64,000 nucleotides of DNA from Chloroflexota bacterium (GCA_041918515.1 JAYRVO010000170.1:3526-67525), one strand, 5' to 3'. Numbered from the stretch's first letter, positions 7,516 to 64,000 are shown. Program-made: numbers and translations. Notes: generated by a model not told the origin, from the letters alone.

Positions 7516-7594
7516 CTGAGTCAGGAGAGCCGCGGTCGGACGGTCTCTTTTTTTGTCTTTTGCGTCATTCTCGTTTTTCTGGAGTTTCGCCCCG

Positions 7595-9355: not shown

Positions 9356-9399
9356 TTGGAGATTGGAGATTGGCGAGGCTCAATCTCCAATCTCCAATC
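9354..9399 (+). terminator. perfect 19-bp-stem hairpin built from GATTGGA/TCCAATC heptamer repeats, immediately after the aspS stop
   Basis: GATTGGAGATTGGAGATTG (9354-9372) pairs perfectly with CAATCTCCAATCTCCAATC (9381-9399) around an 8-nt loop. No U-tract follows it. It belongs to the CAAT-heptamer element family. Confidence 0.5.
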
Positions 9400-9589
9400 T
9401 CTAATGTCCAGAAAATCGAAAAATTGGTGTGTTGGCTGTGACAAAAGTCGCAGCGCGGGGCGGGGGAAAAGGCTAAAATGGGCGATCACTAGGGATGGTT
9501 GCTTCGGAGGCGATGACTTCCTTTCCTCTGTGGGTTGCCTCCGGCAGCCAGGCACTGCGGATCATAATCGTCGATGGCGGAACGCTGGC

Positions 9590-9990
9590 CAGGTTGAGGC
9601 GCAGCCGCACAGGACGCAACCGAGACCCCCACCCGCACCCCCACGCCCACCATCACCCCCACGCACACTCGCACGCCCACTCTGACGCCGACCCCAACTC
9701 GCACGCCCACCCGCACCCCCACCCTGACGCCGACCGACACGCCCACACCAACACCGACCGACACGCCCACACCAACACCGACCGACACGCCCACCCCGAT
9801 ACCGACCGACACACCCACACCAACGCCCACCGACACTGCTTCACCGACGTCGACCGACACATCCACACCTACCCCCACCGATACTGCTACACCGACGCCA
9901 ACCAACACACCCACCAACACCGCCACCCCGACCGATACGCCTACCCCCACCAGCACGCCGCGCATCTTCCGTCATTGGCTGCCGCTACTG
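9590..9990. repeat. imperfect ~27-bp-period tandem repeats (ccgaccgacacgcccacaccaacac); coding frame ambiguous
   Basis: One + frame reads as a Thr/Pro linker ([14 protein letters not shown]...) but has no start codon after an upstream TGA. A second + frame is His-rich (track ORF 9495..10010). The minus frame is a (GV)n ORF. Confidence 0.7.
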
Positions 9991-10011
9991 TTGTCGTGAT
10001 CAGGGTGTGAT

Positions 10012-23870: not shown

Positions 23871-26567
23871 ATGACGCTACCCATGTTGACCACCAAGCTA
23901 TTTCCTCCGCCCGTGCGCGGGGGACTGGTGCCGCGCCCGCGCCTGATCGAGCGGCTGGACGCGGGGTTACGCGGCGGATGCAAGCTCACCCTTGTCTCCG
24001 CCCCGGCCGGCTACGGCAAAACCACCATGGTTGTCGAGTGGGGATTGAAGATTGCATCTCGTCCCCATCCGCAACCCGGAATTCGCAATCCGCAATTCGC
24101 CTGGCTCTCTCTCGACGAAGGCGACAACGACCCCATGCGGTTCGCCACCTACCTCCTGGCTGCGCTACAGCAGATTGATCCGGCCATCGGCCAGGTCGCC
24201 CAGGTGATGTTGCAAACCCCGCGACCGTCTCCGCCGGAAGCGTTGCTCACGAGCCTGATCAACGACATTGTCGCTGCGCCCACGCCCTTCGTCCTCGTCC
24301 TCGATGATTATCAGTTGATCCAGGCGCCGCCTGTGCATCAGTTCCTGGCTTTCCTCCTGGAGCACGCGCCGCCGCAGATGCACGTGGTCATCACCACCCG
24401 CGAAGACCCACCCCTGCCGCTCGCCCGTTTGCGCGCCCGCGGCCAGATCACCGACATCCGACAGAGCGACCTCAAGTTCACCGAGGAAGAAACAGCCAGC
24501 TTTCTGCGGCAGATGATGCGGCTCGACCTCTCACCCGCCGATGTGACGACCATCCAACAACGCAGCGAGGGCTGGATCGCGGGATTGCAATTGGCGGCGC
24601 ACTCCATGCAACACAGCGCAGATGCCCGGCAGTTCGTGGCCGACTTTGCGGGCAACGATCGCTACATTCTGGATTATCTGGTCGAGGAGGTCTTCCAGCG
24701 GCAGCCGCCCGATGTGCAGGATTTCCTGCTCAAGACATCCATCCTCGACCGGATCACGGCGGGCTTGTGCGACGCGGTGTTGGGTCAGGGAGCCGGGGCG
24801 CAGGCCAGCCAAACCATCCTGGAGAGACTCGACCGCGCTAATCTCTTCATCGTGCGGCTGGATGAGACGCGGCAGTGGTATCGCTATCACCACCTCTTCC
24901 GCGACCTTTTACGTCTCCAGCGCCACATCCAGTGCGGTGGGGTGGACGCGGCCGATCTTCATCGCCGGGCCGGGCGTTGGTTCGAGCAGAACGGCTTCTT
25001 GGATGAGGCGCTGGATCATTTCCTGGCGGCGGAGGACTGGAACGAAGTCGAGCGCCTCATCGGGCTGGCAGCTGCGGATGCCATCAACCATGGCCAGTTC
25101 GCCACTTTGAATCGTTGGCTCGCCGCTCTGCCAGAGGAGCGGCTACGCGGCAGTTCCGAGTTGGCCGGCCTCAAGGGCTGGGCGGTGCTGTCGCTGGGAC
25201 AGTTCGCCGCGGCTGAAACCTGGACGAACCGGGCCAACGATCTCCTCCCCCCCAACGCACCCCCGTTCCATCAGGCGTTCGTGCTGTGCCTGCAAATCTA
25301 TCTCGCCCACATCCGCTCCGACATCCCCCAGGTCATCGCCCTGGCCCAACGCGCCCTGACTCTGTTGGAGGCGGAGGACCCGCACGGCTTGCGGGGCGCA
25401 GCTCTGGCCAACCTGGCCTCGGCGCAGATGATCATGGGCGATATCGCCGCGGCGACGCGCACGCTGTGCGAGGAGATTCGCGTGGGACAAGAGCGCGGTC
25501 ACGCCATCAGCGCGGTCAGCGCCCTGAGCACCCTGGCCGAGCTTGAGCATCGCCAGGGCCGGGCGCGGGAGGCGTTGGCGCTCGATCAGCAGGCGCTTGA
25601 TCTGGCAGTGGATGGACGGGGCCATCCTTTGCCGTTGGCGGGACACGCCCATATTGGGCTTGGTCTGATCTATTTCGATCTCGATGATCTGGCGCACGCG
25701 CGCGAACACCTGGTTCGGGGCCTCGATCTGGGCCGGCAGCTTGGTCCGACATCGGGCGCCATGCAGGGCGCATTCACGTTGGCGCGCATTCAGCAGCTGG
25801 CGGGAGAAACAGAAGTGGCGCGAGCGACCGCGGCGGCCGCGCGGCAGGCGGCGGCCGCGCTCAACCTGCCGCTGGCCGAGACACTGGCCGCCGGGTGGGA
25901 GGCAGATTTTCGTCTGAAGTTGGGCGATGTCGCCGCGGCCGCGCGCTGGGCAGAGGCCGCACATCTGACACCGGCGGATATGCCGACCTTCGCGCGCGAG
26001 GCCGAGTACATCACCTATGCTCGCGTGCTGCTGGCGCAGGATCGGCCAGCCGAGGCGCGGGTGCTACTCGCCAACTTCGAGGGCTATGCGCGTCACGCCG
26101 GCCTCGATGGTACGCTCATCACTGTCTGTGTTCTGCAAGCTTTGGTCGAGCAGGCGCTCGGCCAGAAGGCGCCGGCATTGGCGCGCCTGGGTGAGGCAGT
26201 GCGCCTGGCCGCGGGCGAAGGGTATCGTCGCGCTTTTCTGGATGGCGGCGCGGCGGTGGCCGCTCTCCTGCCCGGCGTGCGTCACCTGGCTCCGGCGTTC
26301 GTGGATGATCTGCGCGGTCGTCTGCGCCCGGAATCCAGTCGCAGCAGGTTCGTCACATTAGCGCAGCCCCTCATCGAGCCGCTCAGCGAGCGCGAGTTGG
26401 AGGTGCTACGACTGGTGGCCGAGGGGCTATCGAACGCCGAGATCGCCGATAAGTTGTTCATCAGCGTGGGCACGGTGAAGACGCATGTGCACAATATCCT
26501 GGGCAAGCTTGAGGCGGAGGGGCGGCCGCGAGCGATGGTGCGGGCGAGGGAGTTGGGGTTGATCTGA
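23871..26567 (+). CDS. MalT-like STAND ATPase with a LuxR-family HTH (transcriptional regulator)
   Basis: P-loop SAPAGYGKTT, a WLSLDEGDN motif as in MalT, TPR-like helical repeats and a C-terminal LuxR HTH (LSERELEVLRLVAEGLSNAEIADKLFISVGTVKTHV). A strong RBS GGAGGTGA and a TATAAT lie upstream. Confidence 0.85.
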   Translation: MTLPMLTTKLFPPPVRGGLVPRPRLIERLDAGLRGGCKLTLVSAPAGYGKTTMVVEWGLKIASRPHPQPGIRNPQFAWLSLDEGDNDPMRFATYLLAALQQIDPAIGQVAQVMLQTPRPSPPEALLTSLINDIVAAPTPFVLVLDDYQLIQAPPVHQFLAFLLEHAPPQMHVVITTREDPPLPLARLRARGQITDIRQSDLKFTEEETASFLRQMMRLDLSPADVTTIQQRSEGWIAGLQLAAHSMQHSADARQFVADFAGNDRYILDYLVEEVFQRQPPDVQDFLLKTSILDRITAGLCDAVLGQGAGAQASQTILERLDRANLFIVRLDETRQWYRYHHLFRDLLRLQRHIQCGGVDAADLHRRAGRWFEQNGFLDEALDHFLAAEDWNEVERLIGLAAADAINHGQFATLNRWLAALPEERLRGSSELAGLKGWAVLSLGQFAAAETWTNRANDLLPPNAPPFHQAFVLCLQIYLAHIRSDIPQVIALAQRALTLLEAEDPHGLRGAALANLASAQMIMGDIAAATRTLCEEIRVGQERGHAISAVSALSTLAELEHRQGRAREALALDQQALDLAVDGRGHPLPLAGHAHIGLGLIYFDLDDLAHAREHLVRGLDLGRQLGPTSGAMQGAFTLARIQQLAGETEVARATAAAARQAAAALNLPLAETLAAGWEADFRLKLGDVAAAARWAEAAHLTPADMPTFAREAEYITYARVLLAQDRPAEARVLLANFEGYARHAGLDGTLITVCVLQALVEQALGQKAPALARLGEAVRLAAGEGYRRAFLDGGAAVAALLPGVRHLAPAFVDDLRGRLRPESSRSRFVTLAQPLIEPLSERELEVLRLVAEGLSNAEIADKLFISVGTVKTHVHNILGKLEAEGRPRAMVRARELGLI
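24063..24095. repeat. partial CAAT-heptamer element (gaattcgcaatccgcaattcgcc) embedded in-frame inside the MalT-like regulator gene
   Basis: It shares GCAATTCGCAAT with the intergenic elements at 62252 and 63409. It encodes the extra residues ..PGIRNPQFA.. between the P-loop and the WLSLDEGDN motif. Confidence 0.7.
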
Positions 26568-28343: not shown

Positions 28344-31300
28344 ATGAGTTCCCGCCCTGATTTTGGCTGGCATGACCGTGCGACTTTGCCGTTCACCATG
28401 CGGCGTCTTTTTGTCTTGATCGTGATCGTTTTGGCGGCGTTTCTGTTCGTCGATCACACCGCGGTGCGCGCCAACTCCTTCACCGTGAACAGCACGGCCG
28501 ACGTCGTGGATGCAAATCCGGGGGATGGCGTTTGCGAAACGGCCACGCCGGGAGAATGCACTCTGCGAGCAGCCGTCCAGGAAGCCAACGCCTTCGGAGG
28601 GGACGACGAAATCACCCTACCCGCTGGCACGTATACTCTGACGCTCGCCGGCAGCGGAGATGGCGGCGGCGACCTCGATCACGGCAGTTGCTGCGACCGC
28701 GTGACCATCACCGGCGCCGGTTCCGCCGTCACGACCATCAGCGCCGCCGGGCTGGGCGACCGCATCTTCGACATCCAAAACGGTACGCTGACGCTGACCG
28801 GCGTCACACTGACCGGCGGCAATGTCGTCGGCCATGGTGGAGCGATATTGTTCTCCGAAACAAGCGGCGGCGCGGAGTTGAGCGATGTGGTCATCACCGG
28901 CAACAGCGCCACCGCCAGCGGCGGCGGCGTCTATATCGGTACGGGCTCGCTGTCCGTGGTCAACAGCACGATCAGCAACAATCAGGCCGGCGGCGATGGC
29001 GGCGGCATTTTCACGTCCCTCATGACTAACGTCATCCTTGAGAATAGCCAGGTGTCGGGCAACACGGCGGTAGGCGGGGGCAATGGGCTGGGACTAGAAG
29101 GCGGCACTGCGAACGTCACTCTGCTGGACACCAGCACCGCCGACAACATCTCCCTTGCCAGCAACGCGCAGCTGATCCTGGATGGCGCCATCGGCGGCAG
29201 CTTGGACGGGGTCATCGATGGCGTGGGCACAGTGACGAAGATCGGGACAGGCACCTATACGCTGTCGCAATGGAACAACCTCTCCGGGCCGAACCCTGCT
29301 ACCGGGCCGTTCGATATCCAGGCGGGCATCTTACACATCACCCACCCGTTGGCTTTGGGCAATTTCTTCAATGGCGTCACCACGGTCCAAAATGGCGCTA
29401 CGTTGCTCTATGATGGTCAGCCGCAAAATGGGGTCTACTATATGCCCGATTGGCGGCTCACACTGAATGGCGCCGGTGTCAACGGGCAGGGTGCACTACA
29501 CTTCGTGGCGGGGGGAGCTGGCTTCCAAGGGCCGATTACACTGGCTACCGACAGCACCATCAGAGATGATGCGCCCTCTTACAACCCGGATCATCTGCAG
29601 GGCGCCATAACCGGCCCCGGTAGCTTGACCAAGACCGGTTCAGGCCGTATTATGCTCCATACGGGGACAAACACGTACGGCGGCGCCACAATCGTTCAGC
29701 AAGGCGATCTAAACGTTCATGTGAGTGGCGCCATCCCTGCGACCAGCGACGTGACGGTGGCGGCTGGCGCCTCCCTCTCTATCGGTGATTACCCCGATAA
29801 CTTTGCTTTTCCCAGTGGGCCTGTGAACCAGACAGTTGCCACCTTGCAAGGTTCCGGCCAAATCTATTTGGGGGGCCCATTAGGCGCGGGTGCGCTGACC
29901 GTGGGGAACGCCAGCGACTTCACCTTCGACGGAACCTTCGCCGACAGCGGCGGCGTCGGCAGCCTGATCAAGACCGGCGCTGGCGCCATGATCCTGACTC
30001 ATCCGGGCGGCAACTGGGCCGGCAGCCTCACGATCCAACAAGGTGTCGTTCAGACGGAAAACCTGGCTGGAAATGCCAATATCGCATTGGGCGCGGCGTC
30101 ATTGACCGTCAACATGACCGCCGACGGCGTTTACAACGGCGTTATCAGCGGCACGGGCGGCTTGATCAAGACCGGCGCCAACACGCTGACCCTCACCGGC
30201 GCCAACACCTTCAGCGGACTAACGGACGTGCAAGCCGGCCGGTTGAACATCAATGGCACACACGCCGGAAACGTGGCCGTGACCGGCGCTGGCGCTGCCC
30301 TCGGTGGCACGGGCACGATCAATGGCACGGTATCAGTAGCCGCAGCGGGTTTCCTGTCGCCGGGCAACAGCCCTGGCATCCTCAATGTGGGCGACACGAC
30401 CCTGACGGCCGGCTCCACCTTCGAGGTGGAGATCACGGGCAACACGCCAGGGGTCGGCGGCTACGACCAGTTGAACGTCACCGGTTTCGTGGTCATCGAC
30501 ACGGGCGCACCGGGTGTGACCCTGTCGTCCCTCTTCCCGGCGCCGCCCTACACGCCGCAACTCGGCGATCAATACGTCATCATCAACAACGATGACAGCG
30601 ATCTGGTGACCGGGACCTTCGCTGGTTTACCCGAGGGCGCAACCATCAACGCCGACTTTGGCGGCAGCCTCTACTCTGGGGTTATCTCCTACGTGGGCGG
30701 CGACGGCAACGACGTGGTCATCACCGTAATCACGGTGCAGCGCACCTTCGTCGTGAACGCCACTGCGGATACCGACGACGGGACCTGCAACGCGCTCAAT
30801 TGCACATTGCGCGAGGCGATCAACGCTGCCAATGCCCATGTCAACGCTGCCACGCCCGATGCCATCCACTTCAACATCCCTGGCGCCGGCCCGCACACTG
30901 TGCAGCCCACGACAGCCCTGCCCGCCATCACCAACGCCGTCATCATCGATGGCAGCACCGACCCCAATGGCGCCATCGGGCTGGACGGCAGCCTGGCCGG
31001 CGCCGGCGTACCTGGCTTGGCGATCAGCAGCAGCGGCAGCGCGCTGACCGGTCTGGGCATCACCGGTTTCAGCGACGCTGGCGTATCCATGCTGGCGGGT
31101 ACAGGCAATGTTTTCATTGCCAACCGTATTCATACCAACGGCGGCCTCGGCATCGACCTGGGCAACGATGGCGTCACTCGCAACGACTTTCTTGACGCCG
31201 ATGGCGGCCCCAACCAGCGCCAGAATGCGCCCATTCTCCAGCGAGTTTACGCGGCTTTGGGTGGGCTGCGCGTGCAAGGTGTGCTGAATAGCGCCGCCAA

Positions 31301-34300
31301 CACCACGTATCGCGTCGATCTGTACGCCAACACCACGTGCGATCGTTCTTTTTATGGCGAGGGCGAAAGCGTGTTGGGCCAAATCGCTGTCACCACCAAC
31401 GCCCAGGGCAATGGCTATTTCAGCACGCTGTTGCCAACTCAGCCCAACGGTGTGGCCCTGACCGCCACCGCGACACAGAATCCGGGCACAGGGTTGGCGA
31501 ACACCTCGGAATTCAGCCAGTGCGCCGTCGTTGGCCCCAACAACGACACTTGGGCCAATGCCTATCCTGTCTCGCTAACGCCCGTCGCCGTGGGCGAATC
31601 GTCCGGTTCGGCCAGCCAATATATTTCAGCCTCGGGCCAAACCCGCTGGTTCAAGTTCGCCGCCGCACCCAACAGCACCGTCATCATTGACCTTTCCAGC
31701 CTGCCGGCCAACTACGACCTGACCCTCTTCCGCGACATCGCCAAAACCTATGACCGCTTGCGCCAGCCGCAAGACGTCAACGAACTGGCCTTGCTGTCGG
31801 CTGAATTCGCGCCGGAGATGTTCACGCCGGAGATGTTCACACCGGAGATGTTTACGCCGGAGATGTTCACCCCCGAAATGTTCACGCCGGAGATGTTCAC
31901 ACCGGAGATGTTTACGCCGGAGATGTTCACCCCCGAGATGTTTACGCCGGAGATGTTCACCCCCGAGATGTTTACACCGGAGATGTTCACCCCCGAAATG
32001 TTCACGCCAGAGATGTTCACCCCGGAGATGTTTACGCCGGAGATGTTCACCCCCGAAATGTTCACGCCGGAGATGTTCACCCCCGAAATGTTCACGCCGG
32101 ACCGGCGCTACTATGCCGGGGCGTTGGCGCAGAGCGCGGTGGCTGTCAGTGCTTTCGAGGGCACAGCGCCGGAGTCAGCGGTGGCCAACACCTGGAACGA
32201 AAGCGGCGAGTTCTATGTCAACGTGACCGGCCGCAATGGCGCTTATGATCCCACGGCGCCGTTTGACCTGCGGGTGACGGTGCTGGGGGCCGAGTGCAAC
32301 GGCCTCACCGTGCTTGACGCGGCGCCCAACCTGGGCATCTTGCCGAATGGCGGCTATGCCACGCTCTTCCTCGTCGATTCGCAGCGCATGGGCGTTGATT
32401 ACAGCGCCATTGCCTCGCAGTTGAACACCCTGGCGGGACACCCGGCAGTCAATGGCGTCATTGTAGATGTATCGCAATTTAGCGAGATCGCCGCCGCCAA
32501 CGCTCAGGCCGACCAGCTTTATCAGTGCGTCTATGCCAAGAACATCGTCGCCTACGGCATCAAGGCAGTTGTCGATGCCTATCGCGCCGCCAACCCCAGC
32601 TTGCGCTACATCGTGCCGGTTGGCAACGACGATGTGATCCCGTTCTTCCGCTACCCCGATCAGGCGCTGCTGGCGAACGAGAGCGGCTATGTGCCGCCCG
32701 TGCTCGAGACCACCGCTTCGCAGGCTTCGCTGCGCCACGGCTACGGTCTGTCGCAAGACACCTACGGGGCGGCCATCGAGCTACAGCGTCGCAACACCCG
32801 CTTGCCGTTGCCCGAGCTGGCAGTGGGCCGCCTGGTGGAAACTCCAGCCGAAATCAACGCCACCATCGCCGCCTTTTTGGCGAGCAATGGCACGCTGCCC
32901 ACTCCCTCCCGTGCATTGGTCACCGGCTACGATTTCCTGTCCGACGCCGCCACGGCCATCCAGCAGGATTTGACGGCGGGGCTCGGCGTGGGGGGCTCGG
33001 TCACCCCGCTGATCGATGCCGCCACCACGGCCCCGGTCAACGGCTGGACGGCCGATGATCTGCGCACTGCCTTGCTCGAAAGCGGTCGCCACGACCTGAT
33101 TTACTTGGGTGGCCACTTCAGCTCGTTCAGCGCCCTGGCTGCCGACAACAAAACTCGCGTGCTGGCGTCTGAATTGCTGGCCTCCAGCGTGGACATGCGC
33201 AACGCCATCATCTTCAGCAACGGCTGCCACTCCGGCTACAATCTGGTGGCCGGCCACGCCGTGCCCAACGTCTCGATCGAGCCTGATTGGGCGCAAGTGT
33301 TTGCCGCCAAGGGCGCCATCCTGATCGCCGGTACGGGCTATCAGTACGGCGATACGGATTTCACCGAGTATGGCGAGCGCCTGTACTTCCAGTTCAGCCG
33401 TGAGCTGAGGCGGGGCAGTGGCGTTGTTTCGGTGGGTGAGGCGCTGGTGCGCGCCAAGCAGGTCTACCTCAGCGAAACCGCCGAGATGCGGCCTATCCAC
33501 GAGAAGACATTGCTCACCGCCACGCTTTTCGGCCTGCCGATGACCACCGTCGATATGCCGGGCGAGCGCTACAATCCAGCTTCCGGCGTGACGCTGGTCT
33601 CGCTCACGCCGGTGGCAACCAATCCCGGCGCCATGCTGGGCCTGAAGACCTATGATTTGACGGTGACCCCGAATCTGGTGCGGGTGGACAAGCCCCTGCA
33701 GAACATCGTCGATAACAGCCTGACCAACACCGTCTATTACCAGGTTGCCAATTCCGACCGCCTGGTGATTAACCCCGGCGAGCCAGTCTTGCCCCTCGAC
33801 CTGCACAAGCTACGGGCCACTGATACCCTTGTGCGCGGCCTGGGCTTCCGCGGCGGCAGCTACACCGACGTGCTCAATGTGATCCCGCTCACCGGCGCCG
33901 CCACCACCGAACTGCGTGGCATCCACACACCCTTCATCAGCAGTGTCTTCTATCCGGTGACGCCGTGGGATGTCAACTACTTCGATACGCTGGCCAATTC
34001 GGTGGCCGGCGGGTTCATCGGTGTAGGCGCAATTCCGGCGCAATTCCGCTCCAACGGGCCGAGCAGTGTGGATGGAACCATGCGCGTGTACAACAGCATG
34101 AACTTCCGCCTGTTCTACAGCAGCAACACCGCCGCCTACGAGAACCAGACCTACGACATCACCAACATCCCGGCGCTGGCCGGGCCTCCGGCCATCAGCA
34201 AGGTGACGTCCGCAGCCAACGGCGGCGTGCAGGTTGCCTTCCGCGTCACGGTCACCGGCGATCCTTCCGCCGGAATCCAGGCGGTTTGGGTCACCTACAC

Positions 34301-36632
34301 CAGCGACCAGGCACCGTTGGCCGGACAGTGGCAATCGCTGGACTTGTCGCAAGACCCGAACGACTCGCGCGATTGGGTGGGCGTGCTGGACCTGCAAGGA
34401 ACTTCATCTGCGCACTTGCGCTACATGGTGCAGGCAGCCAATGGTGTTGGCCTGGTCTCGTTGAACACCAACAAGGGCGCCTACTTCCTGCCGGATACCG
34501 ATCCGGCCACCCCGTCGGCACGGCCCGAAGACGCTACTCCGCCCGACCCCGTGGAATTGGTCTTGCTCAGCCCAACGTCCAGCGGTGAGTATGGCACCGA
34601 TGTGACTTTCTCGGCCCGCCTTACCCGCAATGGGGCGCCGTTGGTGGGTGAAACGCTGGAGTTCGGGCTCACCAGCCAGCGCCAATCGGCAGTCACGGGC
34701 GCCAACGGCATCGCCACGGTCACGCTAACGGTGATCGGCGACCCCGCAGATGACACCATCCGCGTCACCTATCCGGGCGCCCCCGGTCTGACCCCAGCGG
34801 CGAACGCAGCGCCATTCACGATCCAGCCCATCCCCACCCTCCTGCAAGTGCTGACCCAAACGCCGACCTTCAGCACAGGCGGCCCAGCCGACCTGTCCAT
34901 TGCCCTCACTGACGCCACTGGCCGGCCGCAGCCGTACAAGTCCGTGCTGATCGTCGTCACCAACGGTGGCGGCGGCGTTGCCTTTGCACAGGCTGTGCAA
35001 ACCGATCTCTACGGCAACGCCCATCTGCGCACGGTCAACCTGGCCGACGGCAGCTATCAGGTGCATGCCTACTTTGCCAGCCGCGTCACGTTGCCTGGCA
35101 TTGGCACGGTGGATATGCGCCTGCCGCGCTTCACCCCCATCCAGACGCCGGCCATTGGCCAACCTCCCGTCGTCATTCGCACCAACACGCCGCCGGTGGC
35201 GCGGCCTGGTGGCCCCTACGACGTCAATGAAGGCGGAAGCGTCGTGCTGAATGGCAGCGCCAGCTCGGATGCCGATGCGGGTCAGGTGCTGACCTTTGCC
35301 TGGGATCTCAACCACAACAGCGGCTTCGAGGTGCAAGGCCCCACACCGACGATGTACGCCACCATGCTCAATGGCCCGGCATCCGATACGGTGCGCCTGC
35401 GCGTGTGCGACCCGATCGAGTGCACGATCGCTACGGCCACGCTCAATATCCGCAACGTGCCACCGACGATCATCAGCATCGCCAACAACGGCCCTGCCGA
35501 TCCCAATCAGACGGTTACGATCTCTGTCACCGCCGACGATCCGGTCGATGTGCTGAACTACAGCTTCGACTGCGATAACAACGGCGTCTACGAGATTGGG
35601 CCCCAGGCCAGCTCACAGGCCGGCTGCTCCTATACGATGCCGGGCAACTACACGGTCAGAGTGCGGGTGCAAGATGGCGCCGCTGCGGTCACGGGAACGA
35701 CGATCGTGAACATCAAGGCCAAAGAGCCGCCAACCGTCAACGCCGGCCCCGATCTGGTTGGCTTTGCCGGGGTTTCGCTCGCTTTTGCCGGCTCCTACAC
35801 TAACCCGCAGGGCGCGCCGCCGTACACCTTCACCTGGACCTTCGGCGATGGCGGCACGGCCACCGGCGCCCTCAACCCCCTGCACACTTACAACACTACG
35901 GGCGTGTTTACGGCCAAACTGACCGTGCGCAACGGCTACAACCTCGAAGGCAGCGACACAGCCCGCATCACCATTTTGCCGAACTACCTGACCTACTGCA
36001 TCCTGGCCGGCAACGACATGGTCAAGCTAGATAAAGATAGCACGTTCACCAACTGTCGCATCGGCGCCGCTCAGCAGATCGATGTCAAGGCCAGCAGCAC
36101 ATTCAACAACAGCCCGCTCAGCCCTATGCTTGGCCCCATTTCCTGGCAGCCCCTGAATCTGACCGCTGGGACCCAAAAAATCCAGGTCGAGAAGAACGGG
36201 ACCGAAACGCTTGCTCCGGGCAGCTATGGCAATCTGGAAATGAAAGATGGCGCCACACTCATCCTCACTGACGGCCACTATCGCTTCCAGGAGTTCAAGA
36301 CGCACAAGAACCCTGCACTTGTTTTCAACCTGGGCGGTGGCAGCATCGTGATCGACGTCGTCGGTGATGTCGAGTTTGGCGATGAAGCACGCTTCTCGAT
36401 CAACGGCGGTGATGCCAGCGACGTGCTCTTCCGGTCGATGGGCAACCATCTGAAGCTCAAGAAAGATGGTCAATACCTGGGCACTTTCCTGGCGCCGCAA
36501 GCAAAGATCACTTTGGAGAAGGGCAACACCCTGACCGGGGCGCTGTTCGGCAAAGCGATTGACATTGACAAGGAAAATGCTGTAACCTACCGGCTGGCGA
36601 CCGATGCGTTCGTCATGTTGTACGGCGAGTAA
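28344..36632 (+). CDS. giant secreted multidomain protein (2762 aa): signal peptide, two CSLREA domains, a right-handed beta-helix with polymorphic-membrane-protein-type repeats, about 19 PEMFT repeats, a caspase-like His/Cys peptidase domain, three PKD domains and an ice-binding-like (DUF3494-type) C-terminus
   Basis: Signal peptide MRRLFVLIVIVLAAFLFVDHTAVRA. GECTLRAAVQEAN and NCTLREAINAAN match the CSLREA domain. The GGHFSS...SNGCHSGY His/Cys dyad resembles clostripain/gingipain-like peptidases. PKD motifs are present (WDLNHNSGFE, FTWTFGDGGT). The C-terminal 200 aa resemble the ice-binding-like fold. The RBS is AGGAG. Confidence 0.8.
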   Translation: MSSRPDFGWHDRATLPFTMRRLFVLIVIVLAAFLFVDHTAVRANSFTVNSTADVVDANPGDGVCETATPGECTLRAAVQEANAFGGDDEITLPAGTYTLTLAGSGDGGGDLDHGSCCDRVTITGAGSAVTTISAAGLGDRIFDIQNGTLTLTGVTLTGGNVVGHGGAILFSETSGGAELSDVVITGNSATASGGGVYIGTGSLSVVNSTISNNQAGGDGGGIFTSLMTNVILENSQVSGNTAVGGGNGLGLEGGTANVTLLDTSTADNISLASNAQLILDGAIGGSLDGVIDGVGTVTKIGTGTYTLSQWNNLSGPNPATGPFDIQAGILHITHPLALGNFFNGVTTVQNGATLLYDGQPQNGVYYMPDWRLTLNGAGVNGQGALHFVAGGAGFQGPITLATDSTIRDDAPSYNPDHLQGAITGPGSLTKTGSGRIMLHTGTNTYGGATIVQQGDLNVHVSGAIPATSDVTVAAGASLSIGDYPDNFAFPSGPVNQTVATLQGSGQIYLGGPLGAGALTVGNASDFTFDGTFADSGGVGSLIKTGAGAMILTHPGGNWAGSLTIQQGVVQTENLAGNANIALGAASLTVNMTADGVYNGVISGTGGLIKTGANTLTLTGANTFSGLTDVQAGRLNINGTHAGNVAVTGAGAALGGTGTINGTVSVAAAGFLSPGNSPGILNVGDTTLTAGSTFEVEITGNTPGVGGYDQLNVTGFVVIDTGAPGVTLSSLFPAPPYTPQLGDQYVIINNDDSDLVTGTFAGLPEGATINADFGGSLYSGVISYVGGDGNDVVITVITVQRTFVVNATADTDDGTCNALNCTLREAINAANAHVNAATPDAIHFNIPGAGPHTVQPTTALPAITNAVIIDGSTDPNGAIGLDGSLAGAGVPGLAISSSGSALTGLGITGFSDAGVSMLAGTGNVFIANRIHTNGGLGIDLGNDGVTRNDFLDADGGPNQRQNAPILQRVYAALGGLRVQGVLNSAANTTYRVDLYANTTCDRSFYGEGESVLGQIAVTTNAQGNGYFSTLLPTQPNGVALTATATQNPGTGLANTSEFSQCAVVGPNNDTWANAYPVSLTPVAVGESSGSASQYISASGQTRWFKFAAAPNSTVIIDLSSLPANYDLTLFRDIAKTYDRLRQPQDVNELALLSAEFAPEMFTPEMFTPEMFTPEMFTPEMFTPEMFTPEMFTPEMFTPEMFTPEMFTPEMFTPEMFTPEMFTPEMFTPEMFTPEMFTPEMFTPEMFTPEMFTPDRRYYAGALAQSAVAVSAFEGTAPESAVANTWNESGEFYVNVTGRNGAYDPTAPFDLRVTVLGAECNGLTVLDAAPNLGILPNGGYATLFLVDSQRMGVDYSAIASQLNTLAGHPAVNGVIVDVSQFSEIAAANAQADQLYQCVYAKNIVAYGIKAVVDAYRAANPSLRYIVPVGNDDVIPFFRYPDQALLANESGYVPPVLETTASQASLRHGYGLSQDTYGAAIELQRRNTRLPLPELAVGRLVETPAEINATIAAFLASNGTLPTPSRALVTGYDFLSDAATAIQQDLTAGLGVGGSVTPLIDAATTAPVNGWTADDLRTALLESGRHDLIYLGGHFSSFSALAADNKTRVLASELLASSVDMRNAIIFSNGCHSGYNLVAGHAVPNVSIEPDWAQVFAAKGAILIAGTGYQYGDTDFTEYGERLYFQFSRELRRGSGVVSVGEALVRAKQVYLSETAEMRPIHEKTLLTATLFGLPMTTVDMPGERYNPASGVTLVSLTPVATNPGAMLGLKTYDLTVTPNLVRVDKPLQNIVDNSLTNTVYYQVANSDRLVINPGEPVLPLDLHKLRATDTLVRGLGFRGGSYTDVLNVIPLTGAATTELRGIHTPFISSVFYPVTPWDVNYFDTLANSVAGGFIGVGAIPAQFRSNGPSSVDGTMRVYNSMNFRLFYSSNTAAYENQTYDITNIPALAGPPAISKVTSAANGGVQVAFRVTVTGDPSAGIQAVWVTYTSDQAPLAGQWQSLDLSQDPNDSRDWVGVLDLQGTSSAHLRYMVQAANGVGLVSLNTNKGAYFLPDTDPATPSARPEDATPPDPVELVLLSPTSSGEYGTDVTFSARLTRNGAPLVGETLEFGLTSQRQSAVTGANGIATVTLTVIGDPADDTIRVTYPGAPGLTPAANAAPFTIQPIPTLLQVLTQTPTFSTGGPADLSIALTDATGRPQPYKSVLIVVTNGGGGVAFAQAVQTDLYGNAHLRTVNLADGSYQVHAYFASRVTLPGIGTVDMRLPRFTPIQTPAIGQPPVVIRTNTPPVARPGGPYDVNEGGSVVLNGSASSDADAGQVLTFAWDLNHNSGFEVQGPTPTMYATMLNGPASDTVRLRVCDPIECTIATATLNIRNVPPTIISIANNGPADPNQTVTISVTADDPVDVLNYSFDCDNNGVYEIGPQASSQAGCSYTMPGNYTVRVRVQDGAAAVTGTTIVNIKAKEPPTVNAGPDLVGFAGVSLAFAGSYTNPQGAPPYTFTWTFGDGGTATGALNPLHTYNTTGVFTAKLTVRNGYNLEGSDTARITILPNYLTYCILAGNDMVKLDKDSTFTNCRIGAAQQIDVKASSTFNNSPLSPMLGPISWQPLNLTAGTQKIQVEKNGTETLAPGSYGNLEMKDGATLILTDGHYRFQEFKTHKNPALVFNLGGGSIVIDVVGDVEFGDEARFSINGGDASDVLFRSMGNHLKLKKDGQYLGTFLAPQAKITLEKGNTLTGALFGKAIDIDKENAVTYRLATDAFVMLYGE
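31811..32100 (+). repeat. about 19 tandem copies of the 15-bp unit gccggagatgttcac, encoding (PEMFT)n
   Basis: Visible directly in the sequence. The period is 15 bp with synonymous variation (aca/acg/acc, gaa/gag). Confidence 0.95.
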
Positions 36633-59320: not shown

Positions 59321-61315
59321 ATGAACGCGCCATTGCCTCAGCGAGTGCTTTATTACGGAAAGGATGCGCCTTTACCCGATCAGACGCCTCTGGTCGCGGG
59401 GCCGCTACGTTTGGTCTACGAAGCCGGGGATTTGCGCTACATCCGCTGGGGCGACCGGGAAATCCTGCGGCGGATTTATGTGGCCGTGCGAGATCACAAT
59501 TGGGGCACGGCGTTGCCGGTTTTGTCGAACGTCCAGATCGAGCAGGGCCAGGATTGGTTCCGCATCGCCTACGACGTGGACAACCGGCTGGGTGACATCG
59601 ATTTCTGCTGGCATGGCGAAATCCACGGCGAGGCCGATGGCGCCATCCGCTTCAGCATGGACGGCGAGGCGCACTCGACCTTTCGCCGCAACCGCATCGG
59701 CTTCTGCCTGCTGCATCCCGCCGAATGCGCGGGGGCGCCAGCCCGCATCGAGCATGTGAATGGCACAGTGGACGAGGCGCCCTTGCCGCGGCTGATCGCT
59801 CCGCAACTTGTCGTGGCCGGCGAGATCAAGCCTGTGGCCCCGTTCCAGGAAATGGCGGGGCTGGCGCACGAGGTGGGGCTGGGCCGGTGGGTCGAGTTCC
59901 GTTTCGCCGGCGACATCTTCGAGATGGAAGACCAGCGCAATTGGACCGACGCCTCGTTCAAAACTTATTGCACACCCCTGCGCCTGCCCTTTCCCCAAGA
60001 AATCCGGGCGGGGACGAAAGTCAGCCAGGCGGTGACGCTGCGTCTGCGCGCCGAAGCACAGCCTGCAGCCGGCGCATCTCTCTCGTCCGCCCGCTCTGGG
60101 CTATGGCTCGACCTGGCGACCGCGAAACCGGCGGTGGATTTGCCCCGGCTCGGCCTGGGCGTCGCCAGCCACGGGCAGCCGTTGCACGAACGCGAGATCG
60201 AGCGGCTGCGGGCGCTGCACCTTGCCCATTTGCGCGTGGATGTGCGGCTGTCCGAGCCAGACTGGGAAGTCCGATTGCAGCAGGCCGCCCTCGAAGCGCG
60301 GGCATTGGGGGCGCAACTCGAGACCGCCATTTTCCTCTCCGATGACGCCGAAAACGAGCTGGAACGATTGGGGCAGGCGCTGGCCCGGATTCAGCCGCCG
60401 GTGGCGAGCTGGCTGATCTTCCACCAAAACGAAAAATCCACCGGCGAGCGTTGGATTGACCTGGCTCGTCCCGTGCTGCTGGCCTACGACCCCACCGCCC
60501 GCATCGGTTCGGGCACGAACGTGTTTTTCACCGAACTCAACCGGGGTCGCCCGCCCGCCCACGCTCTCGATCTGGTGTGCTACTCGATCAACCCGCAGGT
60601 GCACGCTTTCGACAATCTGTCGCTGATCGAGACGCTGGCCGCGCAGGCGGCCACGATCGAGAGCGCCCGCGCTTTCAGCGACGACAAGCCTTTGGCGGTG
60701 ACGCCCATCACTTTGCGGATGCGCTTCAATCCCAACGCCACCGGCCCGGAACCGGCGCCCGCGGCGGGCGAATTGCCCCCGCAGGTGGACGAGCGGCAGA
60801 TGTCGTTGTTCGGGGCGGGGTGGACGCTGGGCAGCATCAAATATCTGGCCGAGGCCGGGACGCAAAGTCTGACCTATTACGAAACCACCGGCTGGCGGGG
60901 CGTGATGGAAACCGAGGCCGGGTCGCCGTTGCCCGACCGTTTCCCCTCACTGCCCGGCGCTGTCTTCCCGCTCTATCACGTCCTGGCCGATGTGGGCGAG
61001 TTCGCCGGCGGGCAGGTGTTGCCGCTGGCATCGAATTGCCCGATGGTCGTGGAAGGGCTGGCGTTGCGCAAAGCCGGTCGCCAACGGCTACTCGTCGCCA
61101 ATCTCAGCGCCGAGACTGTGCAGATCAACATCGCCGGCAGCGGCGCAACCGGTGGCAACGTGCGCTTTTTGGACGAGACCAACGCCATCGAGGCCATGAC
61201 TCAGCCTGAACGCTTCCGCCAGCAGCCCGGCGAACTTTTGCCTGCCCCCGACGACGTCCTCCGCCTCTCCCTCCGCCCCTTCGCCGTCGCGTGCGTTGAT
61301 TTGAGGGATAAGTAG
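59321..61315 (+). CDS. large hypothetical protein (665 aa), possibly a TIM-barrel/glycosidase-like fold
   Basis: A long ORF with high-GC codon bias and no confident motif. The track ORF starts at GTG 59306. The first in-frame ATG is at 59321. Confidence 0.5.
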   Translation: MNAPLPQRVLYYGKDAPLPDQTPLVAGPLRLVYEAGDLRYIRWGDREILRRIYVAVRDHNWGTALPVLSNVQIEQGQDWFRIAYDVDNRLGDIDFCWHGEIHGEADGAIRFSMDGEAHSTFRRNRIGFCLLHPAECAGAPARIEHVNGTVDEAPLPRLIAPQLVVAGEIKPVAPFQEMAGLAHEVGLGRWVEFRFAGDIFEMEDQRNWTDASFKTYCTPLRLPFPQEIRAGTKVSQAVTLRLRAEAQPAAGASLSSARSGLWLDLATAKPAVDLPRLGLGVASHGQPLHEREIERLRALHLAHLRVDVRLSEPDWEVRLQQAALEARALGAQLETAIFLSDDAENELERLGQALARIQPPVASWLIFHQNEKSTGERWIDLARPVLLAYDPTARIGSGTNVFFTELNRGRPPAHALDLVCYSINPQVHAFDNLSLIETLAAQAATIESARAFSDDKPLAVTPITLRMRFNPNATGPEPAPAAGELPPQVDERQMSLFGAGWTLGSIKYLAEAGTQSLTYYETTGWRGVMETEAGSPLPDRFPSLPGAVFPLYHVLADVGEFAGGQVLPLASNCPMVVEGLALRKAGRQRLLVANLSAETVQINIAGSGATGGNVRFLDETNAIEAMTQPERFRQQPGELLPAPDDVLRLSLRPFAVACVDLRDK

Positions 61316-61339
61316 GCAAGTAGGCAAGTAGACAAGTAG
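61307..61339. repeat. left junction repeat GATAAGTAGGCAAGTAGGCAAGTAGACAAGTAG (octamer GTAGGCAA x2-3); the 12-mer AAGTAGACAAGT recurs at 62225-62236
   Basis: The exact 12-bp direct repeat, extended to 15 bp as GATAAGTAG[G/A]CAAGT, flanks the low-GC segment 61340-62224. Confidence 0.8.
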
Positions 61340-61384
61340 TTGGCACGCCCCTTGCCCAATGAGTCAAACAAAAGGTCGGTAATT

Positions 61385-62059
61385 ATGAACAAGATAACAG
61401 AATTGTTTCAGGGACGCTCAAAAACTTATATAATCATCTTGATGGTGTTAGCAATAGTTGTAATAGTCACCATGTACTGGTTGATAAAAAGTCCAAGTTT
61501 CGAGTCTTTTCTTTCCTTGTTGGTTATTGTTGCAATTGCTGCCGTGTTGAGATCTCTAAAAGATGCTTCAGATATTTTTGCCGTGTCCGAAAAAGATATT
61601 GAAGTTGCTCGTGTACGTGTTGAGCAAAATCCAGATAAAGCAAAACCCGCTTGGGATTTAGCAACGGTAAAATTAGAAGCCTATTTATCAGCAAATCTAA
61701 AGCAAATAAATTGGATTTTCGGTTTAAGTGTCATTGTAATGATTGTTGGGTTTGTATTTTTAGCAATCGCCGTCTTTCTAACTTTACAAAATCCAGAATT
61801 TATTACTCCTGTAATTGTTGCTGGTGTTGGCGGTGCGCTTACTGAATTTATCGGAGCAACATTTCTTGTTTTATATCGTTCAGTAGTTGAACATTCCACC
61901 AACTTCATTAAGTCTTTAGATAAAACAAGTTCAGTCGGTGTTGCTATGCAAATATTGGACAACATATCTGCTGATAAAGATGAAATGGTTCGAGAGAAAA
62001 TTATTGACGCCAAGATTGAAGTAGCAAAACTTCTACTTTCTAACCTTTCAGAAAAATAA
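61385..62059 (+). CDS. orphan low-GC 4-TM membrane protein (horizontally acquired)
   Basis: The ORF is about 36% GC in a 65% GC genome. It has two TM hairpins separated by a ~60-aa soluble segment and ends in an amphipathic helical tail. No family call. Confidence 0.6.
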   Translation: MNKITELFQGRSKTYIIILMVLAIVVIVTMYWLIKSPSFESFLSLLVIVAIAAVLRSLKDASDIFAVSEKDIEVARVRVEQNPDKAKPAWDLATVKLEAYLSANLKQINWIFGLSVIVMIVGFVFLAIAVFLTLQNPEFITPVIVAGVGGALTEFIGATFLVLYRSVVEHSTNFIKSLDKTSSVGVAMQILDNISADKDEMVREKIIDAKIEVAKLLLSNLSEK

Positions 62060-62251
62060 TGTTCTCTTTTGCAGGCTTAGAGTCTTATAATCAAAAGCAT
62101 GCCAACAAAGCGTGCACCCGATGTGTGGGATTCTGCGGCATTTTCAAGCATTTTTCTGGCTTTGGGTTTTTTCTGCTCCCGAACAGCGTCCACGCCCACT
62201 CACACGCAGGTAACGCAAACCGATAAGTAGACAAGTGGCAGGTCGCAGACC

Positions 62252-62315
62252 CTATTTCGCAATTCGCAATTCCCATTTCGCAATTCCCAATCTCCAATAA
62301 CCAATCCCCAATCCC
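62252..62315. repeat. CAAT-heptamer tandem element ending 3 nt before the mevalonate kinase start codon
   Basis: It reads tatttcg|caattcg|caattcc|catttcg|caattcc|caatctc|caataac|caatccc|caatccc. It is closely related to copies at 63409-63464 and 9354-9405. Confidence 0.9.
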
Positions 62316-62318
62316 CCC

Positions 62319-63335
62319 ATGCCCACCCTCATCACCTCTTCCCCCGCCAAAATTATCCTTTGCGGCGACCACGGTGTGAATCGCCAGCAGCCGGCGCTGT
62401 GCACGGCCGTGGACATGCGCACCTTCTGCCGGGTCAGCACACGGTCGGACGAGCACTTCAGCTTCCGGTCGGGCGACCGCTTCGAGGAATGCACGCGGGA
62501 GCAACTGCTGGCTTTCAAAGCGCGCGTCGATGGCCTGCGCGAGGCCAAAGCCCTGGATGAGATTCGCGAGCAGGCGCGGGACTTTTTCGCCACCACGCGC
62601 TACGTATTGTCCTTCGTCGTGGACAAAGTGGGCGGGCCGGGGCTGGACATCGAATGGCGCTCGGATGTGCCGGTCAGTTCGGGGCTTGGCTCCGGCGCGG
62701 CGGCTTCGACATCGATGGCGTTGGCGGCTTTCACCCTGGCCGGACACGAGCCAACGCCGGACGAAGTGATCTGGGCGGCCTGGCAGGGCGACAACATCGC
62801 CCACGGCGGCGTGGCCTCCAGCCTGGACAGCAGCACCATCGTCAAGGGCGGGACGGTGCGTTACACGGTCAAGGATGGCGCCATCCCGCTCGACCTTTCG
62901 GCTTCGCTGCCGTTGGTCGTGGGCCAGTCGTTCGTCGCCGACCGCAGCACGGCCAAGCTCAACACCATCGTGCGCAAGTTCGTCGAGGCCCATCCCCCCA
63001 AGATGCATCTTTTCTGGGACATGGGCTGGCTGGTCGAGAACATCCAAGCCAGCATGGCCGCGGGCGATTTGCCCACACTCGGCCATCTCTTCAATCTACA
63101 TGAGCTGATCCAGGAAAAAATCGGCGCCGTCGCCCCCGAAAACGAGATGCAAATCGAGGCCGCCATCGGCGCTGGAGCGCTGGGGGCCAAAGTCTCGGGC
63201 GCGGGCGGTGGCGGCATCATCATCGCTATCGTCGAGCCAGACAAGCAGCCCGCCGTGATCGCCGCCATCGAAGCTGTCCACGGTCGCGCCTTCGCCGTGA
63301 GCACCGGCGCCCCCGGCACGCGCGTTGAGTCGTGA
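62319..63335 (+). CDS. mvk: GHMP kinase, most likely mevalonate kinase
   Basis: N-terminal PAKIILCGDHGV (compare the PGKVILFGEHAV motif), the GHMP ATP-binding motif PVSSGLGSGAAASTSMA and C-terminal GAKVSGAGGGG. Confidence 0.65.
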   Translation: MPTLITSSPAKIILCGDHGVNRQQPALCTAVDMRTFCRVSTRSDEHFSFRSGDRFEECTREQLLAFKARVDGLREAKALDEIREQARDFFATTRYVLSFVVDKVGGPGLDIEWRSDVPVSSGLGSGAAASTSMALAAFTLAGHEPTPDEVIWAAWQGDNIAHGGVASSLDSSTIVKGGTVRYTVKDGAIPLDLSASLPLVVGQSFVADRSTAKLNTIVRKFVEAHPPKMHLFWDMGWLVENIQASMAAGDLPTLGHLFNLHELIQEKIGAVAPENEMQIEAAIGAGALGAKVSGAGGGGIIIAIVEPDKQPAVIAAIEAVHGRAFAVSTGAPGTRVES

Positions 63336-63408
63336 CAAGCTGACGCCGGTCGAGTACGACCGGTGGTGACGCCGGTCGAGTAAGACCGGTGGTGACAAGG
63401 TGACGCCG

Positions 63409-63464
63409 TTATTTCGCAATTCGCAATTCGCAATCTCCAATAACCAATCTCTAATCTCTACTCC
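63409..63464. repeat. CAAT-heptamer tandem element immediately upstream of the next start codon
   Basis: It reads ttatttcg|caattcg|caattcg|caatctc|caataac|caatctc|taatctc|tactccc. The ATG lies at 63471. Confidence 0.9.
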
Positions 63465-63470
63465 CAAAAC

Positions 63471-64000
63471 CATGCAAAACACAACCTCTATCCCCAAAGG
63501 CAGAATCGTCGATTTGACGCATGTTCTGCAGCCGTTCAAAGAACAATATACATTGGAAGTCGTGCAGCGCGGCAAGCGCACCGGCCCCGAAGGCGACGTG
63601 ATGAGCGTGGTCTACATGTGGTCGCATGTGGGCACGCACGTCGAAGCCCCCTTGCACTTCCTCAGCGACGGCGGCGACACCTCATCGCTGGCCATCGAAA
63701 AACTCATGGGCCCGGCCATCGTCCTCGATTTCCGGCACAAGGCCGTGAATGAACCGATCACGCTGGCGGAAATCCAGGCGGCGGGCGATGTCCAAATCGG
63801 CGACCGGGTGCTGACCATGACCGGACGCCACACCTCGTACCGCACGCCGCAATCGCACGACCGGCCCTACATCACCGAAGAAGCTGTGCGCTGGCTGGTC
63901 GAAGACCGCAAGATCAACTGCCTGGGCACCGATAGCTCTGGCTTCGAAGTGCGCGGGGTCAGCCATCACCCGGATCATCGCCTGCTGAACAATGCCGGTG
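63471..64000 (+). CDS. putative cyclase-family protein (kynurenine formamidase-like), truncated by the window end
   Basis: MQNTTSIPKGRIVDLTHVL...HVGTHVEAPLHF carries the HxGTHxDxPxH cyclase-family motif. It runs to the window edge. Confidence 0.6.

Follow-up and report, generated by a model that had tools for sequence, protein, structure and literature searches.

The window analysed here, a stretch of 64,000 nucleotides from a Chloroflexota bacterium, contained four sites with CAAT-like heptamers in tandem (sites A to D; Table 1), as had been listed in a first-pass annotation of the sequence; sites A, B and C agreed with that description to within 1 nt. A period of 7 was detected at all four sites by Tandem Repeats Finder (TRF). 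When the whole 64 kb was scanned for self-similarity at lag 7, a strong period-7 signal appeared only at the intergenic sites A, B and C; site D was weaker. The pattern CAATNNNCAATNNNCAAT was matched eight times in the window and was not matched in any of 100 shuffles. The arrays consisted of head-to-tail 7-nt units in at least 3-4 copies, which is the definition of heptanucleotide simple-sequence repeats. The closest relatives of the window genes were found in Chloroflexota MAGs.

Table 1. Heptamer arrays, adjoining genes and other features of the window (coordinates counted from its first nucleotide).
Feature	Coordinates	Strand	Remarks
aspS, class II aspartyl-tRNA synthetase	7553-9355	+	stop codon within G-arm of site C
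Site C, G-arm, GATTGGA x 2.9	9354-9373	+	overlaps aspS stop TGA (9353-9355) by 2 nt
Site C, loop CGAGGCT of inverted pair	9374-9380	+	from RNA fold
Site C, C-arm, CAATCTC x 3 then TAATGTC	9381-9408	+	pairs with G-arm
ORF without Pfam match	9495-10010		C/A-rich repeats at 9625-9959
Site D, four GCAAYYC-type units	24071-24098	+	inside MalT-like LuxR regulator ORF (23871-26567)
2762-aa ORF	28344-36632		tandem repeat at 31806-32101
Low-GC insertion	61316-62318		GC 0.39, about 1 kb
ORF in insertion	61385-62059		GC 0.35; PF20712
Non-coding segment, 119 nt	62104-62222		matches L036 1420-1538
Array A, nine imperfect heptamers	62253-62315	+	leads GHMP kinase gene; no Shine-Dalgarno site
GHMP kinase gene (earlier "mvk")	62319-63335	+	assigned from NCBIfam and operon context; led by array A
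26-bp repeat units	63341-63396		between kinase stop and array B
Array B, eight heptamers	63410-63465	+	leads cyclase-family gene; no Shine-Dalgarno site
Cyclase-family gene, PF04199	63472-63999	+	Pfam Cyclase; runs past window end; led by array B

Array A was composed of the units TATTTCG, CAATTCG, CAATTCC, CATTTCG, CAATTCC, CAATCTC, CAATAAC, CAATCCC and CAATCCC. It showed a gradient from the CAATTCG type at its 5' end to the CAATCYC type at its 3' end, with the C-rich strand as the sense strand. The last unit was followed by CCC and then by the ATG at 62319, leaving a gap of 3 nt between array and start codon. Array B was composed of TATTTCG, CAATTCG, CAATTCG, CAATCTC, CAATAAC, CAATCTC, TAATCTC and TACTCCC and was followed by AAAACC and the ATG at 63472, a gap of 6 nt. 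Both distances had been noted in the first-pass annotation, as had the common unit order of these two 5'-UTR copies. When a single indel of 14 nt (two units) was allowed, 45 of 49 positions were identical and array B reproduced the unit order of array A less two units. The 30-nt flanks upstream of the two arrays matched at only 13 of 30 positions. The unit CAATAAC, which was present in both arrays, was rare (6 of 898 units elsewhere). The near-identity of the arrays between unrelated flanks indicates that A and B are copies that arose by local duplication or gene conversion. A search of positions 61000-64000 against Rfam returned no match at E <= 1, and a promoter scan found no sigma-70-like promoter upstream of the arrays on the + strand.

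Site C was an inverted pair of arrays at the end of aspS, the identity of which was confirmed and the stop codon of which is overlapped by the first arm. The two arms formed 19 perfect base pairs, in agreement with the perfect 19-bp hairpin described earlier for this gene end, and the RNA fold had a free energy of -40.4 kcal/mol (z = -7.4). An intrinsic (Rho-independent) terminator was considered for this site and rejected, since the tail TCTAATGTCCAG had no T-tract and a terminator scan made no call. The aspS orthologue in locus L110 (67% nucleotide identity) also ended inside a heptamer array, the unit of which was GAATTGT where the window has GATTGGA. Upstream of this orthologous aspS (L110 ~2240-2380) a compound array was present, in which (GGTTATT/GGATATT)n was followed by (ACTGATC)n on the aspS sense strand; the (ACTGATC)n part abutted GGAGG and the aspS start. 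In the window, the ORF at 9495-10010 contained long, imperfect repeats of 12/24/30 bp, rich in C and A, which translate into a low-complexity region rich in Thr and Pro.

At site D the units GCAACCC, GGAATTC, GCAATCC and GCAATTC encoded part of the regulator segment ...PQPGIRNPQFA.... The fourth copy that had been placed in frame within a regulator gene was found there, but it was marginal, with 74% matches in TRF and no call in the lag-7 scan. With at most one mismatch, GCAATNCGCAATNC was matched in the window at sites A, B and D only (5 matches against 0.78 expected). One homologue of the LuxR regulator was without the eight residues encoded at site D. A coding repeat of another kind was observed in the 2762-aa ORF, where about 20 copies of a 15/30-bp unit stood in tandem with 82-91% matches; it is probably a pentapeptide-type protein repeat.

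The gene behind array A had been named mvk. This name was not retained, as the GHMP kinase scored below both curated NCBIfam cut-offs for mevalonate kinase (148 against 163 and 142 against 403). In relatives with kinase proteins 72-78% identical to that of the window, the operon order was SorC-type regulator, apionate-lactonase-like gene, kinase, (aldo-keto reductase), cyclase and ribulose-phosphate-epimerase-like gene. The conservation of an operon with these neighbours makes a sugar-acid kinase the more likely identity, and the GHMP kinase is not a proven mevalonate kinase.

The same relatives were used to compare the junctions occupied by arrays A and B. The arrays were missing from the orthologous junctions of these operons. 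In loci L120 and L122, 11 nt separated the stop of the lactonase gene from the start of the kinase gene, with GGTGA or GAGGGG before the ATG, and in L121 the kinase ATG was preceded by GGAGG; the Shine-Dalgarno-like sites of the kinase orthologues lay 7-9 nt from the ATG. The starts of the cyclase orthologues were preceded by AAGGAA or GGAG. In the window, no GGAG, GAGG or AGGA was found upstream of either the kinase or the cyclase start, and many other window genes had canonical Shine-Dalgarno sites. The lactonase-kinase junction of the window contained the low-GC insertion followed by array A, and the kinase-cyclase junction contained two 26-bp hairpin units followed by array B. As the orthologues have no arrays and carry Shine-Dalgarno-like sites, the arrays are lineage-specific gains that displaced ribosome-binding sites. 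The earlier proposal that the array replaces or abuts the ribosome-binding region therefore agrees with the orthologues, which carry such sites at both positions. Since relatives keep the operon with ordinary ribosome-binding sites and the window has G-poor arrays at two sites, the locus provides a clean natural experiment for SD-independent translation. For genome annotation, starts without Shine-Dalgarno sites behind arrays and in-frame arrays inside genes should be treated as real features and not as errors.

The surroundings of arrays A and B showed several further features. The insertion that separates the kinase gene from the apionate-lactonase-like gene contained an ORF with a 'Cyanobacterial TRADD-N associated 2-TM' domain (E = 1e-15) and was flanked by octamer repeats, namely AAGTAGGC x 3.8 at 61310-61339 and AAGTAGACAAGTGG at 62225-62238. 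The insertion looks like a horizontally acquired cassette that was put into an octamer array. The 119-nt non-coding segment was 84% identical to its counterpart in L036, an Anaerolineales MAG, and in both sequences it was located directly 3' of an AT-rich ORF; it had no Rfam match and no stable hairpin. It was evaluated as an attC-like recombination site and rejected, as neither strand folded better than its shuffles. Between the kinase stop and array B the 26-bp unit TGACGCCGGTCGAGTAAGACCGGTGG was repeated 2.2 times, each unit with a CCGGTC...GACCGG hairpin.

The predicted transcript of site A (111 nt, -4.2 kcal/mol) had hardly any pairing in the part that runs from the array to the start codon inclusive, and at site B the array portion of the transcript was unpaired in the fold. 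The sense strands of arrays A and B folded with -0.8 and -3.2 kcal/mol and the G/U-rich antisense strands with -13.2 and -10.3 kcal/mol, respectively. Across loci, array-led starts (-40 to +20) had a mean folding energy of -5.75 kcal/mol compared with -12.26 kcal/mol for 333 other starts (p = 5e-7). The putative leaders, which are structure-free in these models, are compatible with a role in translation initiation.

A G-quadruplex or i-motif structure of the arrays was also considered; as a quadruplex in template DNA or RNA, the G-rich strand (GGGGATT, GGGAATT, GGAGATT) would modulate transcription or translation, which has been suggested for GGGAATC/GGGGAYT repeats. The antisense strand of site A has tracts of GGGGGG, GGGG, GGG and GGG, two of its units are exactly the GGGGATT of Nostoc, and the arrays are placed as in a published repeat family, the G-rich strand of which is the non-coding one over the 50 bp upstream of ORFs (Rehm et al., 2015; PMC4692102). 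We nevertheless consider this explanation highly improbable. Most units (GGAGATT) have GG only, the CAATTCG part is without any G-tracts, and a quadruplex at site A would need loops of 11-17 nt between its GGG tracts. Heptamer families without G-runs share the same niches, and G4-aware folding in ViennaRNA predicted in silico no quadruplex on either strand at site A, B or C.

The likeness to STRR heptamers had been proposed from the window alone, and a wide search found such arrays far beyond it. A scan of one-genome-per-species contigs with CAATCTCCAATNNCCAAT yielded at least 119 stretches. Among the matches listed, 89 came from records titled as Chloroflexota taxa (Anaerolineae, Anaerolineales, Ardenticatenaceae, Caldilineaceae, Promineifilaceae, Leptofilum and unclassified Chloroflexota) and 7 from filamentous or other cyanobacteria; the loci were ascertained via the CAATCTC pattern, and these taxon proportions are indicative and not those of a random sample. 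The 5' motif of arrays A and B, TTTCGCAATTCGCAATTC, was found in at least 120 metagenome contigs with GC contents of 0.34-0.69. To survey arrays irrespective of their sequence, a lag scan was run on the 89 Chloroflexota loci (629 kb), counting arrays more than 250 nt from an ascertained match. It detected 66 arrays of period 7 and 0-13 arrays for each other period from 4 to 12. The unit families were diverse (TACGATT, AACAGTG, CACTCGT, GTTCTTT, AACACGC, ACTGATC and others), and at least 20 other heptamer unit families occurred in the same kinds of positions as the CAAT arrays. Period-7 arrays were depleted in coding-like sequence, with 25 of 68 inside such sequence, which made up 69% of the bases (p = 4e-8). 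In these related genomes, which serve as a proxy, the arrays were many, mostly intergenic and of several families. The CAAT arrays are one family within a general population of heptamer microsatellites, in which the period is shared and not the sequence.

The first-pass annotation had further described a dispersed element as opposed to independent microsatellites. This part did not hold, as A and B are homologous only up to the array edges and the unit families are diverse. That the arrays are small palindromic mobile elements of MITE, REP or RPE type, spreading by transposition or recombination into spacers and genes, is in our judgement very unlikely. Such an element would account for the unit order common to A and B, for the location of array A at the edge of the 1-kb low-GC insertion and for an in-frame inverted pair in a conserved membrane-protein gene of two species, as is seen for Rickettsia palindromic elements. 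However, the match between A and B does not continue into the flanks, the loops of the 19 inverted pairs from other genomes were all different, and neither terminal inverted repeats nor target-site duplications were observed, nor was an associated transposase. Among the at least 120 metagenome matches listed for the 5' half of the composite A/B order, none showed this order in full, and a partial match was present in L209/L241. We know of no dedicated transposase for arrays of the type found in the window. Unit counts of the 19 pairs were variable, the unit composition of arrays in other genomes was free, and site C had only the CAATCTC unit in common with A and B. A conserved element sequence with defined ends, of the MITE, REP or RPE kind, was rejected on account of the varying loops and unit counts and of the homology ending at the array edge. 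Compound microsatellites together with one local copying event fit the shared 7-nt period.

Comparison of orthologous loci gave an impression of the turnover of the arrays. Loci L129 and L167 shared an inverted pair that differed in unit number, and in L202 and L228 arrays persisted upstream of the same gene. Arrays were likewise kept, with a different unit number or type, at the aspS stop of the window and L110 and in L001 and L005. Differences of whole units between orthologous arrays, and tandem repeats that adjoin start codons, are what would be expected of phase-variable contingency loci, in which unit gain or loss toggles downstream expression. This we regard as hardly tenable here. Imperfect units such as these suppress slippage, the arrays are not part of the coding frame, and no promoter was predicted with a spacing that they could change; the neighbouring genes are housekeeping or metabolic. 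An argument of this type has already been raised against phase variation for other heptamer repeats (PMC4692102). The persistence of arrays at orthologous sites, together with the in-frame gene copies, could exceed passive tolerance.

The relation between (CAATNNN)n arrays and start codons, a comparison suggested by the first-pass annotation, was analyzed in the proxy loci. The orientation test included 104 C-rich arrays (Chloroflexota loci and the window) and used, on each strand, the first downstream ATG that opened a coding-like ORF (90 aa or longer). An ATG within 20 nt of the array was found on the C-rich strand in 20 cases and on the G-rich strand in 3 (p = 5e-4), and within 35 nt in 28 and 5 cases, respectively (p = 7e-5); these counts are approximate and some of the starts are probably false, since the gene calls in the loci were crude (ORF length and GC3). 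The orientation bias was significant at both distances, and the difference between the strands faded beyond ~50 nt from the array. Of the inverted pairs, 19 had the G-arm first and the C-arm second and one had the opposite order (p = 4e-5), irrespective of the direction of the flanking genes. As the G-then-C order is identical when read on either strand, the C-rich arm faces whichever start codon follows.

Not all comparisons showed a bias. For the near-palindromic CAATTCG family in the metagenome contigs, the orientation bias was not significant (11 against 6 within 20 nt), which is the expected outcome if strand asymmetry is what matters. The CAATTCG result fits the model, yet it shows that start-proximal placement is not universal. 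The placement of G-rich arrays behind stop codons, on the coding strand, that is reported for Xanthomonas and Nostoc did hold at the aspS stop of the window; across loci it was not significant (9 against 5 within 10 nt). Among period-7 arrays near starts and away from ascertained matches, the sense strand had less G than C in 9 cases against 3, which was not significant either. Shine-Dalgarno sites were found at 25% of array-led starts and at 30% of background starts, the latter being crude calls. As spacers are short, the nearness of arrays to start codons may be largely geometric, and the orientation bias is the only clean signal.

This signal bears on the question whether the arrays are neutral slippage products, with an orientation bias that stems from strand-specific mutation tied to transcription or replication and not from selection on mRNA. 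The excess of heptamers whatever their sequence and the lineage-specific presence or absence of arrays speak for this view, and no function has been demonstrated in any described system (PMC4692102). We find this explanation quite unlikely, as the bias is tied to the distance from the start codon and the arm order of the inverted pairs is 19:1 regardless of flanking gene direction. In addition, the loss of Shine-Dalgarno sites with the ORFs kept implies that the leader still works.

At the other end, the arrays could be dedicated post-transcriptional sites, at which an RNA-binding protein (S1, cold-shock or CsrA-like) would bind the CAAUNNN units multivalently and set downstream translation. 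Arrays that end 3-6 nt from the ATG where no Shine-Dalgarno site is present would suit this, as would the orientation bias toward start codons, the AAT core as the conserved part of the units and the persistence at orthologous genes (L202/L228 and the aspS stop). A precedent has been proposed for the TAACTGA repeats of Beggiatoaceae (PMC4679880). Against it, many unrelated heptamers occupy equivalent positions, so that no single recognition sequence is evident. The same operon exists in relatives without arrays, the downstream genes are functionally unrelated (sugar-acid kinase, cyclase and the aspS neighbour), and the window offers no candidate for a binder linked to the arrays. Such dedicated sites seem unlikely to us.

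The reading to which we lean, with somewhat more belief than doubt, is that the arrays are compound heptanucleotide microsatellites that arise by slippage and copying and are kept by selection at the level of mRNA, and that they displaced the Shine-Dalgarno sites of two genes. The arrays would belong to a genome-wide population of repeats with a 7-nt period in the intergenic spacers of Anaerolineae, Ardenticatenia and Caldilineae-type Chloroflexota. Their origin and turnover may be explained by replication slippage together with local copying or gene conversion, with A and B as one copy pair. The orientation statistics and the folding results suggest that selection on mRNA would then filter which arrays persist. 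For the strand-asymmetric CAATCYC/GGAGATT arrays beside starts, the surviving orientation would be the one that places the G-poor strand in the transcript. This strand cannot self-pair, and a structure-free leader would result; the G/U-rich strand folds. With the Shine-Dalgarno site displaced at the two window genes, initiation there must be SD-independent; it may rely on a landing site that is rich in C, A and U and free of structure, of the ribosomal-protein-S1 kind. In inverted pairs, the order G-arm then C-arm would satisfy both orientation rules. At gene 3' ends these pairs fold into hairpins of very high predicted stability, which may protect the upstream message in the manner of REP hairpins, or may simply be tolerated.

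A bolder extension can be formulated for filamentous Chloroflexota, although we hold it to be quite unlikely. The G-free CAAUCYC arrays would be a transferable module for SD-independent initiation, a landing pad for the ribosome or S1 that is able to overwrite Shine-Dalgarno sites and to be copied between cistron junctions, as A and B suggest, and inverted arrays would correspond to palindromes of the RPE type that proteins tolerate when in frame. If this were true, heptamer microsatellites would be an evolvable layer of translational control, one shared with cyanobacteria and Beggiatoaceae, and not junk.

Several known repeat systems resemble the arrays of the window. The STRR heptamers of cyanobacteria (STRR1 CCCCAGT, STRR2 TTGGTCA and STRR3 CAACAGT), first described from Calothrix and Anabaena, are tandem 7-nt units that are dispersed and mostly intergenic, with several families per genome. 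To our knowledge, no function is known for STRR sequences. A likeness is that arrays similar to AACAGTG/CAACAGT adjoin CAATCTC arrays in Chloroflexota loci. Unlike STRR1-3, the window units are CAATTCG, CAATCYC and CAATAAC, and the host belongs to the Chloroflexota and is not a heterocystous cyanobacterium.

REP/BIME sequences of enterobacteria and the Rickettsia palindromic elements are stable extragenic hairpins at gene 3' ends, with in-frame copies in genes. The hairpin of site C resembles them, as does an inverted GGAGATT/CAATCTC pair that was observed in L001 (~4990-5100) and L005 (~6690-6790) in frame in the ORF of a conserved multi-pass membrane protein; this in-frame pair is like a Rickettsia palindromic element. 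L001 and L005, which represent two species, shared 77% nucleotide identity, and their length differences were multiples of 3. Unlike REP, BIME and Rickettsia palindromic elements, the arms here are microsatellite arrays with a free number of units, unrelated loops and no conserved element sequence.

The repeats GGGAATC of Xanthomonas and GGGGA(C/T)T of Nostoc PCC 7120 are over-represented in non-coding DNA (Rehm et al., 2015; PMC4692102). Up to 50 bp upstream of ORFs, their G-rich strand is the non-coding one; where repeats overlap stop codons or lie within 50 bp after a stop, it is the coding one. Inverted pairs occur and no function was found (PMC4692102). Arrays A and B follow the start-upstream rule, as do the loci (20 against 3 within 20 nt). 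With regard to the unit itself, two GGGGATT and two GGGAATT were present among the nine units of site A and none at sites B and C. In contrast to the repeats of Rehm et al., most units are GGAGATT or GCGAATT without G3 tracts, and no G4 was predicted.

The direct repeats of TAACTGA in marine Beggiatoaceae, some cyanobacteria and Bacteroidetes are found in forward orientation, end a few nt from starts and mostly lack a ribosome-binding site; they were proposed to act in translation, and strains differ in 7-nt steps (MacGregor, 2015; PMC4679880). Arrays A and B are likewise in forward orientation, 3 and 6 nt from the ATG and without a ribosome-binding site, with SD-like sites in the orthologues. 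The unit and the phylum differ; ACTGATC, which is one base off a rotation of TAACTGA, was present in L110 and L011. Within the Chloroflexota, satellites derived from a heptamer, (GATAGRA)n, are scattered in the genome of Chloroflexus aurantiacus (Subirana and Messeguer, 2019; PMC6749651). They are from the same phylum, but from another class (Chloroflexia) and of another unit, and the survey did not include an analysis of start-codon placement (PMC6749651). This survey was the only report on heptamer repeats in Chloroflexi/Anaerolineae found in the literature searched. The breadth in Anaerolineae, Ardenticatenia and Caldilineae-type Chloroflexota, the 19:1 arm order and the ortholog-based evidence for SD replacement were not found in that literature. 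The geometry and the translation hypothesis are already published for GGGGAYT/GGGAATC (PMC4692102) and TAACTGA (PMC4679880), respectively. The arrays of the window are real and extend a known type of repeat, with a putative function in translation, to a further lineage; independent observations of start-adjacent heptamers now come from cyanobacteria, Xanthomonas, Beggiatoaceae and many Chloroflexota.
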